NCBI RefSeq assembly: GCF_056712565.1
Contig: NZ_CM160072.1
DNA length: 64,000 bases
Direction: 5' to 3' (one strand)
Under the pieces are notes generated by a model. The model worked only from the letters and a program-made list of their open reading frames with translations, did no database searches and was not told the DNA's origin. Within the stretch, counting starts at the first letter, position 1. Each line of letters opens with the position of its first letter. Shown piece by piece: positions 28,403 through 31,400 of the stretch. The position numbers and the translations under genes are program-made.

Positions 28403-31400
28403 ATGGACGTCAGTCGCAGACAATTTTTTAAAATCTGCGCGGGCGGTATGGCGGGAACAACAGTAGCAGCATTGGGCTTTGCCCCGAAGCAAGCACTGGC
28501 TCAGGCGCGAAACTACAAATTATTACGCGCGAAAGAGATCCGTAACACCTGCACATACTGTTCCGTAGGTTGCGGGCTATTGATGTATAGCCTGGGTGAT
28601 GGCGCGAAAAACGCCAGAGAAGCGATTTATCACATTGAAGGTGACCCGGATCATCCGGTAAGCCGTGGTGCGCTGTGCCCGAAAGGGGCCGGTTTGCTGG
28701 ATTACGTCAACAGCGAAAACCGTCTGCGCTACCCGGAATATCGTGCGCCAGGTTCTGACAAATGGCAGCGCATTAGCTGGGAAGAAGCATTCTCCCGTAT
28801 TGCGAAGCTGATGAAAGCCGACCGTGACGCTAACTTTATTGAAAAGAACGAGCAGGGCGTAACGGTAAACCGTTGGCTTTCTACCGGTATGCTGTGTGCT
28901 TCCGGTGCCAGCAACGAAACCGGGATGCTGACTCAAAAATTTGCCCGCTCCCTCGGGATGCTGGCGGTAGACAACCAGGCGCGCGTCTGACACGGACCAA
29001 CGGTAGCAAGTCTTGCTCCAACATTTGGTCGCGGTGCGATGACCAACCACTGGGTGGATATCAAAAACGCTAACGTCGTAATGGTGATGGGCGGTAACGC
29101 TGCTGAAGCGCATCCCGTCGGTTTCCGCTGGGCGATGGAAGCGAAAAACAACAACGATGCAACCTTGATCGTTGTCGATCCCCGTTTTACGCGTACCGCT
29201 TCTGTGGCGGATATTTACGCACCTATTCGTTCCGGTACGGACATTACGTTCCTGTCTGGCGTTTTGCGCTACCTGATCGAAAACAACAAAATCAACGCCG
29301 AATACGTTAAGCATTACACCAACGCCAGCCTGCTGGTGCGTGATGATTTTGCTTTCGAAGACGGTCTGTTCAGCGGCTACGACGCTGAAAAACGTCAATA
29401 CGATAAGTCGTCCTGGAACTATCAGTTCGATGAAAACGGCTATGCGAAACGCGATGACACGCTGACTCATCCGCGCTGTGTATGGAACCTGCTGAAAGCG
29501 CACGTTTCCCGCTACACGCCGGACGTAGTAGAAAACATTTGCGGTACGCCAAAAGCCGACTTCCTGAAAGTGTGTGAAGTGCTGGCCTCCACCAGCGCAC
29601 CGGATCGCACAACCACCTTCCTGTACGCGCTGGGCTGGACGCAGCACACCGTGGGTGCGCAGAACATCCGTACGATGGCGATGATCCAGTTACTGCTCGG
29701 TAACATGGGTATGGCCGGTGGCGGCGTGAACGCATTGCGTGGTCACTCCAACATTCAGGGCCTGACTGACTTAGGCCTGCTCTCTACCAGCCTGCCAGGT
29801 TACCTGACGCTGCCGTCAGAAAAACAGGTTGATTTGCAGTCGTATCTGGAAGCGAACACGCCGAAAGCGACGCTGGCTGATCAGGTGAACTACTGGAGCA
29901 ACTATCCGAAGTTTTTCGTTAGCCTGATGAAATCTTTCTACGGCGATGCCGCGCAGAAAGAGAACAACTGGGGCTACGACTGGCTGCCGAAGTGGGACCA
30001 GACCTACGACGTCATCAAGTATTTCAACATGATGGATGAAGGTAAAGTCACCGGTTATTTCTGCCAGGGCTTTAACCCGGTTGCGTCCTTCCCGGACAAA
30101 AACAAAGTGGTGAGCTGCCTGAGCAAGCTGAAGTACATGGTGGTTATCGATCCGCTGGTGACTGAAACCTCTACCTTCTGGCAGAACCACGGCGAGTCGA
30201 ACGATGTCGATCCGGCATCTATTCAGACTGAAGTATTCCGTCTGCCTTCGACCTGCTTTGCTGAAGAAGATGGTTCTATCGCTAACTCCGGTCGCTGGTT
30301 GCAGTGGCACTGGAAAGGTCAGGACGCGCCGGGCGAAGCGCGTAACGACGGCGAAATTCTGGCGGGTATCTACCATCATCTGCGCGAGCTGTACCAGGCC
30401 GAAGGTGGTAAAGGCGTAGAACCGCTGATGAAGATGAGCTGGAACTACAAGCAGCCGCACGAACCGCAATCTGACGAAGTAGCTAAAGAGAACAACGGCT
30501 ATGCGCTGGAAGATCTCTATGATGCCAATGGCGTGCTGATTGCGAAGAAAGGTCAGTTGCTGAGTAGCTTTGCGCATCTGCGTGATGACGGTACAACCGC
30601 ATCGTCTTGCTGGATCTACACCGGTAGCTGGACAGAGCAGGGCAACCAGATGGCTAACCGCGATAACTCCGACCCGTCCGGTCTGGGGAATACGCTGGGA
30701 TGGGCCTGGGCGTGGCCGCTCAACCGTCGCGTACTCTACAACCGTGCTTCGGCGGATATCAACGGTAAACCGTGGGATCCGAAACGGATGCTGATCCAGT
30801 GGAACGGTAGCAAGTGGACGGGTAACGATATTCCGGACTTCGGCAATGCCGCACCGGGTACGCCAACCGGGCCGTTTATCATGCAGCCGGAAGGGATGGG
30901 ACGCCTGTTTGCCATCAACAAAATGGCGGAAGGTCCGTTCCCGGAACACTACGAGCCAATTGAAACGCCGCTGGGCACTAACCCGTTGCATCCGAACGTG
31001 GTGTCTAACCCGGTTGTTCGTCTGTATGAACAAGACGCGCTGCGGATGGGTAAAAAAGAGCAGTTCCCGTATGTGGGTACGACCTATCGTCTGACGGAGC
31101 ACTTCCACACCTGGACCAAGCACGCATTGCTCAACGCAATTGCTCAGCCGGAACAGTTTGTGGAAATCAGCGAAACGCTGGCGGCGGCGAAAGGCATTGC
31201 CAATGGCGATCGTGTCACTGTCTCCAGCAAGCGTGGCTTTATCCGCGCGGTGGCTGTGGTAACGCGCCGTCTGAAACCGCTGAATGTAAACGGTCAGCAG
31301 GTTGAAACGGTGGGTATTCCAATCCACTGGGGCTTTGAGGGTGTCGCGCGTAAAGGTTATATCGCTAACACTCTGACGCCGAATGTCGGTGATGCAAACT

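Follow-up and report, generated by a model that had tools for sequence, protein, structure and literature searches.

The in-frame TGA at 28988–28990 on the plus strand of the window, the 64,000-nt stretch of Escherichia coli chromosome analysed here, is, with a probability that we put at about 0.98, the selenocysteine (Sec) 196 codon of an intact fdnG gene, and a bacterial SECIS hairpin lies just downstream of it. We establish the codon, its reading frame and the identity of the protein, a match to a curated SECIS model with the matching geometry, selection at the RNA level and, in a nearly identical genome, the presence of selABCD. Nothing contradicts this reading.

A single fdnG frame runs through the UGA codon

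A single open frame extends from the ATG at 28403 to the TAA at 31448–31450 on the plus strand, and its sole internal stop is the TGA at codon 196. A mechanical list of open reading frames divides this stretch into two entries that share a frame, 28403–28990 (195 aa) and 29039–31450 (803 aa), the second beginning 48 nt past the TGA only because no start codon comes earlier than the ATG at 29039. The preliminary description had reported two open reading frames in one frame parted by a single TGA, and no other stop lies between them. Read through the TGA, fdnG (28403–31450) comprises 1015 codons plus the stop, and all 819 codons downstream of the TGA are intact.

The product of this frame is the alpha (catalytic) subunit of formate dehydrogenase-N (Fdh-N). 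It scores 1621 bits against TIGR01553, for which the curated equivalog cut-off is 814 bits (814.2), with residues 2–1014 aligned to profile positions 1–1009 in one stretch. Three Pfam domains are found (Molybdop_Fe4S4, Molybdopterin and Molydop_binding), and the Molybdopterin domain (residues 107–589) runs across the TGA. The window is nearly identical to the chromosome of E. coli strain ZJ3920, from which it is set apart by 5 substitutions, by a deletion of 3478 bp at 59363/59364 and by an insertion element (approximately 59906–61233); in that genome RefSeq annotates the equivalent of 28403–31450 as one CDS. Fdh-N is a periplasmic Tat substrate, and the fdnG translation, read with established knowledge of such signals, contains a putative twin-arginine export motif, S-R-R-Q-F-F-K, at 28412–28432 on the plus strand. 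The periplasmic location of the catalytic subunit has been reported (PMC3160892).

Around the TGA the frame reads V-[TGA]-H-G-P-T-V, which places a U-H-x-P motif at the position of the Mo ligand, the motif listed for the formate dehydrogenase-N alpha subunit (PMC13188914, Table 1). In an alignment with the Fdh-N crystal structure 1KQF, the TGA codon falls on the non-standard residue X196, and Sec196 of Fdh-N is a Mo ligand of the active site (PMC3160892). The selenocysteine previously placed at about residue 196 is thus at exactly residue 196.

The remainder of the operon follows on the same strand. The iron–sulfur beta subunit gene fdnH occupies 31463–32347 (TIGR01582, 482 bits) and the cytochrome b gamma subunit gene fdnI occupies 32340–32993 (NF007558, the FDH-N gamma model, 486 bits, versus 270 bits on the FDH-O-type gamma model); RefSeq agrees on both. 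Together with the TIGR01553 score and the single RefSeq CDS, these neighbours bear out the earlier assignment of the gene as fdnG. A terminator-like hairpin followed by a T run lies at 33014–33043 on the plus strand, 20 nt past the fdnI stop, and its match to the consensus makes it the probable operon terminator.

The same arrangement is found in E. coli K-12, where fdnGHI forms the same operon between the same neighbours, yddG and yddM. K-12 fdnG (b1474; Berg et al. 1991; structure 1KQF) is the same gene with the TGA at the same codon number. Its SECIS region shows zero nucleotide differences from ours, and across gene nt 560–680 only nt 678, outside the element, differs. The rest of the gene differs at 52 nucleotides and 5 amino acids, none of them near the Sec site; relative to K-12, the amino-acid changes are F342L, D352E, A366E, A666S and A933N. 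Five is also the number of residues at which the product differs from chain A of 1KQF, the solved K-12 protein. More distantly, periplasmic formate dehydrogenases of distant bacteria (such as 8cm4 and 6sdr), compared at the protein level, are full-length homologues (E ~1e-287) and are also selenoproteins, with the PDB chain name 'Formate dehydrogenase, alpha subunit, selenocysteine-containing'.

A SECIS hairpin directly follows the UGA

The region 28985–29043 on the plus strand matches the Rfam family SECIS_3 (RF01989) over the full model (positions 1–59) with 84.3 bits and an E value of 1.3e-19. This is far beyond chance: the gathering score is 63 bits, and this is the only gathering-level Rfam match in the whole 64 kb. 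The span flagged earlier, 28985–29040, nearly equals the match. Membership of SECIS_2, the fdhF type, is rejected (28.8 bits against a threshold of 70).

Numbering the U of the UGA as 1, the complete predicted hairpin runs from C6 to G46 (28993–29033, plus strand), within the fdnG coding sequence and directly 3′ of the in-frame UGA. Minimum free energy (MFE) and centroid structures agree, and the MFE is −12.7 kcal/mol (46 nt). Its upper stem-loop (nt 15–32; 29002–29019, plus strand) is the putative SelB-binding minihelix, judged from its fdhF-like geometry and from the fold of the 18-mer, ((.(((((...))))))). This minihelix carries a bulged U17 (29004) and an apical loop of G23-U24-C25 (29010–29012), and is separated from the UGA by an 11-nt spacer, CACGGACCAAC. 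The determinants of SelB recognition are U17, G23, U24 and the 11-nt spacing (PMC8659212). The hairpin also falls inside the published bSECIS model on every count: a loop of 3 nt (model, 3–9 nt), an upper stem of 7 bp (4–16 bp), a G first in the loop with U next (G in the first two loop positions), 19 nt from UGA to loop (16–37 nt) and −12.7 kcal/mol (MFE ≤ −7.5 kcal/mol).

The reference bacterial SECIS is that of fdhF (formate dehydrogenase-H), which is of the Rfam SECIS_2 type and serves Sec at codon 140 of a cytoplasmic 715-aa enzyme. The fdhF and fdnG elements share the UGA followed by CAC GG, the 11-nt spacer, G15-G16 paired with CC, the bulged U17, and G23-U24 in the apical loop. They differ in that the fdhF loop is GGUC (4 nt), whereas the fdnG loop is GUC closed by an extra A-U pair; the lower-stem sequences differ as well. 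Within the upper stem, pair 18–30 is A-U in fdnG, G-C in the SECIS_3 consensus and U-A in fdhF, and pair 21–27 is A-U in fdnG and C-G in the consensus. Both pairs change on both sides, so that pairing is kept while U17, G23 and U24 stay constant, in a cross-class comparison of three distinct sequences.

We claim compensatory changes for these two upper-stem pairs only. In the lower stem, the Rfam consensus register gives two non-canonical pairs in the fdnG sequence (A-G and A-C), and the MFE fold shifts the register by one with a G bulged; we therefore rejected the ':' marks of the cmscan alignment there as compensated pairs. Overall, the hairpin expected immediately 3′ of the UGA is supported by model match, fold and geometry, and its upper stem-loop lies in the register of the fdhF SECIS.

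Folding energy proved to be a poor guide. Measured against dinucleotide shuffles, the fdnG hairpin gives z-scores of −0.99 (56 nt), −1.37 (46 nt) and −2.06 (18-nt minihelix), and at 56 and 46 nt it is not significantly more stable than the shuffled sequences. The experimentally proven fdhF SECIS gives z = +0.08, no better than shuffled sequence. Hairpin stability alone is thus uninformative, and we rejected it as a discriminating test. The preliminary description would have abandoned its reading if no stable stem-loop followed the TGA and the genome had no selenocysteine machinery; the stem-loop is present, but its stability relative to shuffles is unremarkable, as it is for fdhF. What is convincing for the SECIS is the match to the covariance model together with the freezing of synonymous sites, not the folding energy.

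The selenocysteine machinery and reading of the UGA

The search for selABCD elsewhere in the genome, proposed earlier as a check, has a clear outcome in ZJ3920, which serves here as a proxy genome. It carries selD (1777287–1778330), selB (3915839–3917683), selA (3917680–3919071) and the tRNA-Sec gene selC (3995751–3995845), all intact and without pseudogene flags, and selAB is found in 5425 of 5426 complete E. coli genomes. The 64-kb window contains no tRNA genes and its annotation no sel genes; these are sited elsewhere on the chromosome, as in K-12.

The best-surviving alternative, itself very unlikely, is that the UGA is read mainly without SelB, by near-cognate suppression (for example with Trp) or as termination, and that the conserved RNA serves another purpose. 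Under selenium limitation, termination or near-cognate read-through is possible at Sec codons, and a hairpin that is thermodynamically unexceptional would be compatible with such a reading. Against it stand the curated SECIS model match and the SelB determinants, present in the register of the proven fdhF element, as well as genetics: a selC mutant of E. coli is devoid of Fdh-N and Fdh-O activity (PMC3160892). Decoding of the fdnG UGA without SelB would be at most a minor side reaction.

Selenocysteine decoding through SelB also has direct precedent. Two papers of 1991 (Berg et al., I and II, cited here through PMC13188914) found that the fdnG UGA encodes Sec and needs an mRNA stem-loop, and paper II (cited in the same source) showed SelB-directed Sec insertion experimentally for K-12 fdnG, whose SECIS is identical. 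Berg et al. (1991) tested read-through in K-12 with fdnG′-′lacZ fusions across the UGA and the hairpin, and loss of full-length FdnG on deletion of selB or selC has been reported for K-12. When TGA codons were recoded genome-wide, the three internal ones, in fdhF, fdoG and fdnG, were intentionally left in place (PMC11903333).

By analogy with this published E. coli K-12 work, we infer for the present gene that SelB binds the hairpin, that Sec is actually inserted and that residue 196 acts in catalysis. The upper stem-loop, with its bulged U17 and G23-U24 loop, would be bound by SelB carrying GTP and Sec-tRNA(Sec), the selC tRNA on which SelA would convert Ser to Sec with selenophosphate supplied by SelD. 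With the ribosome at the UGA, the hairpin would tether SelB at the A site, and Sec would be inserted instead of chain termination by release factor 2. The full-length 1015-residue subunit would then be exported by the Tat route, and Sec196 would be a ligand to the molybdenum of the formate-oxidising bis-MGD cofactor.

Synonymous sites are frozen from the UGA onwards

We compared 70 full-length fdnG orthologues from other enterobacterial species, with a mean pairwise DNA identity of 84% and 8.6% of third positions invariant. Just one run of 12 nt or more never varies among them, a 50-nt block at 28988–29037 on the plus strand, and it starts exactly at the TGA. Codons 196–211 each use one codon in 70/70 orthologues, and upstream of the TGA synonymous variation is ordinary. 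Purifying selection at the RNA level thus begins exactly at the UGA. Near-invariance extends about 20 nt beyond the 3′ end of the hairpin, to approximately 29053. As a lesson in method, a true SECIS is not recognised by its folding energy but is recognised by a stretch of frozen synonymous sites beginning exactly at the UGA.

A scan of genome contigs returned 80 fdnG loci, of which 77 cover the Sec site with the motif intact. The TGA is kept in all 77 of these loci from other species; a 71-nt block is identical in 70 of them, and the hairpin shows zero changes. Because the element is invariant, covariation among the 77 is unmeasurable, and the synonymous-site footprint was used instead. The same 71 nt (28985–29055) are identical in E. 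coli K-12 fdoG, the longest identical run between these paralogues. fdoG lies at another locus and shares 74.7% DNA identity overall with fdnG, yet its TGA is also codon 196 and its SECIS is of the same Rfam class, SECIS_3. Its regulation differs from that of fdnG. Within E. coli, all but one of the 5433 matching records (5432) carry the 71-nt block at ≥99% identity; they cover 5425 of 5426 complete genomes, mostly with two copies per genome.

The frozen region exceeds the 17–18-nt minihelix bound by SelB, and the stretch that fdnG shares unchanged with fdoG measures 71 nt, which raises the possibility that the lower stem and 3′ flank of fdnG/fdoG-type SECIS elements have an extra function beyond the needs of the minihelix. 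We regard this as doubtful. Such a function could be ribosome pacing, competition with release factor 2 or an alternative structure; alternatively, gene conversion may keep fdnG and fdoG identical there.

These comparisons bear directly on the notion that fdnG is a pseudogene in this strain, with the TGA as its nonsense mutation, which is exceedingly improbable. The mechanical call does split the gene into 195-aa and 803-aa pieces, and both are deposited publicly as separate proteins. A lesion of this kind would be expected as a lineage-specific stop with relaxed constraint downstream; instead the TGA is universal in the 77 loci, and the downstream codons are strongly constrained by purifying selection, with codon positions 1 and 2 conserved at 95–97% versus 74% at position 3. 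The same TGA occurs in K-12 and at the homologous position of the paralogues fdoG and fdhF, the surrounding block is near-universal in complete E. coli genomes, and a non-standard residue occupies this position in a solved structure. On comparative grounds the pseudogene reading is already refuted by conservation, in keeping with the preliminary description, which had denied that the TGA was a lesion.

Equally improbable is a reading as two genes, one for an N-terminal protein of 195 aa and one for a protein of 803 aa that begins at ATG 29039. Both are listed reading frames and database entries, but codons 197–212, from the TGA to that ATG, show perfect conservation at the protein level and align with 1KQF, in which the chain is unbroken, TIGR01553 is matched end to end, the Molybdopterin domain spans the TGA, and RefSeq holds one CDS.

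Discussion

The Sec codon of fdnG and its SECIS are already known biology, established since 1991 and confirmed by a crystal structure, and nothing new on selenocysteine decoding follows from this window. The value of the result is practical. The preliminary description had stated that automated pipelines often call such a gene as two, and both fragments (195 aa and 803 aa) indeed occur, letter for letter, as protein records of their own, each on at least 1000 contigs, although the current RefSeq annotation from NCBI gives one CDS. In public protein collections, such split fragments are widespread. What looks like an interruption of fdnG is a site of programmed recoding, and the gene should be annotated as one 1015-codon selenoprotein CDS, neither as two open reading frames nor as a pseudogene.

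An in-frame TGA at codon 196 of fdnG

The interval 28403-31450 (plus strand) translates in one frame as the 1016 codons of fdnG, encoding the formate dehydrogenase-N (Fdh-N) alpha subunit, with a TAA at its end and a sole internal stop at codon 196, the TGA at 28988-28990 (plus strand). In a mechanical ORF list this frame appears as a 195-aa ORF (28403..28990, plus strand) and an 803-aa ORF (29039..31450, plus strand), separated by 48 nt only because no start codon follows the TGA before ATG 29039. Translation and a frame check bear out the TGA coordinates and the shared frame of the two ORFs that a preliminary description gave, and the selenocysteine (Sec) it placed at about residue 196 falls at exactly 196. 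On the strand opposite fdnG, a 356-codon open frame (28577-29647, minus strand) crosses the SECIS region; RefSeq leaves it unannotated, and chance in a GC-rich coding region probably accounts for this antisense ORF.

A SECIS hairpin directly follows the UGA

The Rfam family SECIS_3 (RF01989, fdnG/fdoG type) matches 28985-29043 on the plus strand at 84.3 bits (gathering score 63, E 1.3e-19), and no other Rfam match reaches gathering level in the 64 kb; the fdhF-type SECIS_2 was rejected at only 28.8 bits. MFE and centroid folds concur on a hairpin spanning C6-G46 (28993-29033; U of the UGA is 1), whose upper stem-loop G15-C32 (29002-29019) carries a bulged U17 and the loop G23-U24-C25, 11 nt past the UGA. 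This fits the described E. coli SECIS geometry, in which an upper stem-loop of 17 nt lies 11 nt away from the UGA and U17, G23, and U24 are the SelB determinants (PMC8659212). The register is that of the K-12 fdhF SECIS, and the K-12 fdnG SECIS shows zero nucleotide differences from this region. A published bacterial SECIS model specifies a loop of 3-9 nt with an upper stem of 4-16 bp, a G in the first two loop positions, a UGA-to-loop distance of 16-37 nt, and an MFE of at most -7.5 kcal/mol; the fdnG element lies within all four constraints (loop 3 nt, stem 7 bp, G first, distance 19 nt, MFE -12.7 kcal/mol). The Rfam score, hairpin position, and SelB determinants thus place a SECIS immediately 3′ of the UGA, as had been expected. 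[quoted passage not shown]

Folding energy by itself does not show more than chance. Against dinucleotide shuffles, the z-scores of the fdnG hairpin are -0.99 (56 nt) and -1.37 (46 nt), and the fdhF SECIS, which is proven by experiment, scores +0.08; a "stable stem-loop" is therefore a weak test in both directions, and conservation is decisive. The folding check that had been proposed returned the predicted hairpin, with a stability that is unremarkable relative to the shuffles.

Covariation among orthologues could not be counted because the element lacks variation. Across SECIS classes, upper-stem pair 18-30 is A-U in fdnG, G-C in the SECIS_3 consensus, and U-A in fdhF, and pair 21-27 is A-U in fdnG and C-G in the SECIS_3 consensus, while U17, G23, and U24 are constant in the classes compared. 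Under the Rfam register, the lower stem of fdnG would contain A-G and A-C pairs; in the MFE fold the register is shifted and a G bulges out. On these three distinct sequences we claim some compensated pairing, for upper-stem pairs 18-30 and 21-27 and no further.

The TGA and its 3′ flank are frozen across enterobacteria

An orthologue scan covering a single genome from each species yielded 80 loci in enterobacteria, with protein identities of 85-100%. The TGA is present in all 77 loci where the site is covered and the motif is intact; the surrounding 71 nt are identical in 70/77, and the rest carry single changes, all outside the hairpin. Among 70 full-length ungapped orthologues, pairwise DNA identity averages 84%, and just 8.6% of third codon positions lack variation. 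The sole run of at least 12 invariant columns across the whole gene is 50 nt long (28988-29037) and begins at the T of the TGA. Codons 196-211 each use one codon in 70/70 sequences (including GGA, CCA, ACG, GTA, AGT, CTT, and ACA), and codons 181-195, just upstream, vary synonymously in the ordinary way. K-12 fdoG, the formate dehydrogenase-O paralogue, has 74.7% DNA identity to fdnG and the same codon at only 57.6% of conserved residues, and their longest identical run is the 71 nt around the Sec codon (28985-29055). Within E. coli, this block matched 5433 records (at least 99% identity in 5432) and occurs in 5425/5426 complete genomes, usually twice per genome.

Judged from these alignments, such a footprint is what selection on mRNA structure overlaid on coding sequence should leave. 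A nonsense lesion, in which the TGA would be a disabling stop, is excluded by its universal conservation and the strong constraint downstream; with the SECIS and a structural alignment on residue 196, this sustains the earlier reading of a Sec codon rather than a pseudogene lesion.

Cross-species near-invariance extends about 20 nt beyond the hairpin 3′ end. The frozen block exceeds what the SelB-binding minihelix needs; selection or gene conversion may account for the excess. Citrobacter sp. wls619 (NZ_SZXJ01000027.1, about 994-1010) has an fdnG orthologue with the TGA and a 56-nt deletion directly after TGA CAC GGA CCA, so that the whole hairpin is lost and the reading frame shifts. No other locus covering the site shows this, and the case reflects either a true pseudogene or faulty assembly.

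Gene identity and split annotation

With the stop replaced by Cys, the product matches the NCBIfam equivalog TIGR01553 end to end at 1621 bits (cut-off 814) and contains Fe4S4, molybdopterin, and MGD-binding domains, the TGA falling inside the molybdopterin domain. Five residues differ from K-12 FdnG, and residues 1-1015 align with the Fdh-N crystal structure (1KQF, chain A), whose non-standard residue X196 lies on the TGA. RefSeq annotates 28403..31450 as a single CDS, fdnG, in K-12 and in the near-identical E. coli genome ZJ3920. Directly downstream lie fdnH (TIGR01582, 482 bits) and then fdnI (NF007558, 486 bits), which completes the support for the assignment as fdnG. Two separate genes are excluded, as profile, domain, and structure alignments run on across the TGA.

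Past fdnI is a terminator-like hairpin (33014-33043). In the fdnI-yddM intergenic region (33067-33148), Rfam families of REP-derived small RNAs match below threshold (naRNA4, 38.2 bits, threshold 59.5; ES036, 25.9, threshold 37.6); the sequence looks like a REP element.

Gene callers do split fdnG, as the preliminary description held: the 195-aa and 803-aa fragments stand verbatim as separate proteins in a 15-billion-sequence collection, each in at least 1000 contigs and some of them under misleading names. NCBI RefSeq annotation leaves the gene whole. One 195-aa copy (EFN8991448.1) is named "sulfate ABC transporter substrate-binding protein" at source, a mis-annotation that arises because fdnG was split at the Sec codon.

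Selenocysteine machinery and neighbouring loci

A tRNA search and annotation found no tRNA or sel gene in the window, and ZJ3920 served as proxy genome. The window differs from NZ_CP020545.1 (ZJ3920) 1491536-1555535 by five substitutions up to 59363, with structural change beyond, and a 25-kb piece has 100% identity with several phylogroup-B2-like E. coli chromosomes. ZJ3920 carries selD (1777287-1778330), selB (3915839-3917683), selA (3917680-3919071), and tRNA-Sec (3995751-3995845), all annotated, none flagged as a pseudogene, in neighbourhoods as in K-12. The selB-selA DNA occurs in 5425/5426 complete E. coli genomes, and the selABCD check that had been proposed came out positive in the proxy genome.

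At 59363/59364, 3478 bp are absent relative to ZJ3920, leaving ydeP with its C-terminal 458 codons, fused to the 3′ end of a fimbrial usher gene. The deletion takes the 5′ part of ydeP (minus strand, 58055-59431), an FdhF/YdeP-family molybdoenzyme gene, plus ydeQ, ydeR, and ydeS. An IS3-family (IS2-like) insertion sequence (about 59906-61233; orfB 59917-60822 with rve integrase domains, orfA 60780-61190) interrupts the usher gene; it is absent in ZJ3920 and present at the same locus in other E. coli genomes. By ZJ3920 annotation, 9920-15906 and about 40811-40975 hold a frameshifted yncG, an orphan type VI secretion island (PAAR, VgrG, M35 peptidase, hypothetical, and an ISAs1 transposase remnant), and, adjoining dosP, only a short remnant of a diguanylate cyclase gene.

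Probable selenocysteine insertion at fdnG

The analysis confirms the observation and supports its interpretation, which is already known: this is the textbook case of the fdnG selenocysteine codon followed by a SECIS. Berg et al. 1991 (papers I and II), as cited in PMC13188914, reported for fdnG that the UGA encodes Sec and that the stem-loop is essential, and a TGA-free E. coli spared the internal TGAs of fdhF, fdoG, and fdnG on purpose (PMC11903333). The present analysis itself shows the UGA, a SECIS that carries the SelB determinants, selection at the RNA level, and, in ZJ3920, the sel genes. Going by K-12 work, the upper stem-loop would bind SelB carrying GTP and Sec-tRNA(Sec), which would place Sec at the A-site UGA while competing with release factor 2. 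In the Fdh-N structure Sec coordinates Mo (PMC3160892), and Sec196 would likewise ligate Mo in the periplasmic, Tat-exported catalytic subunit.
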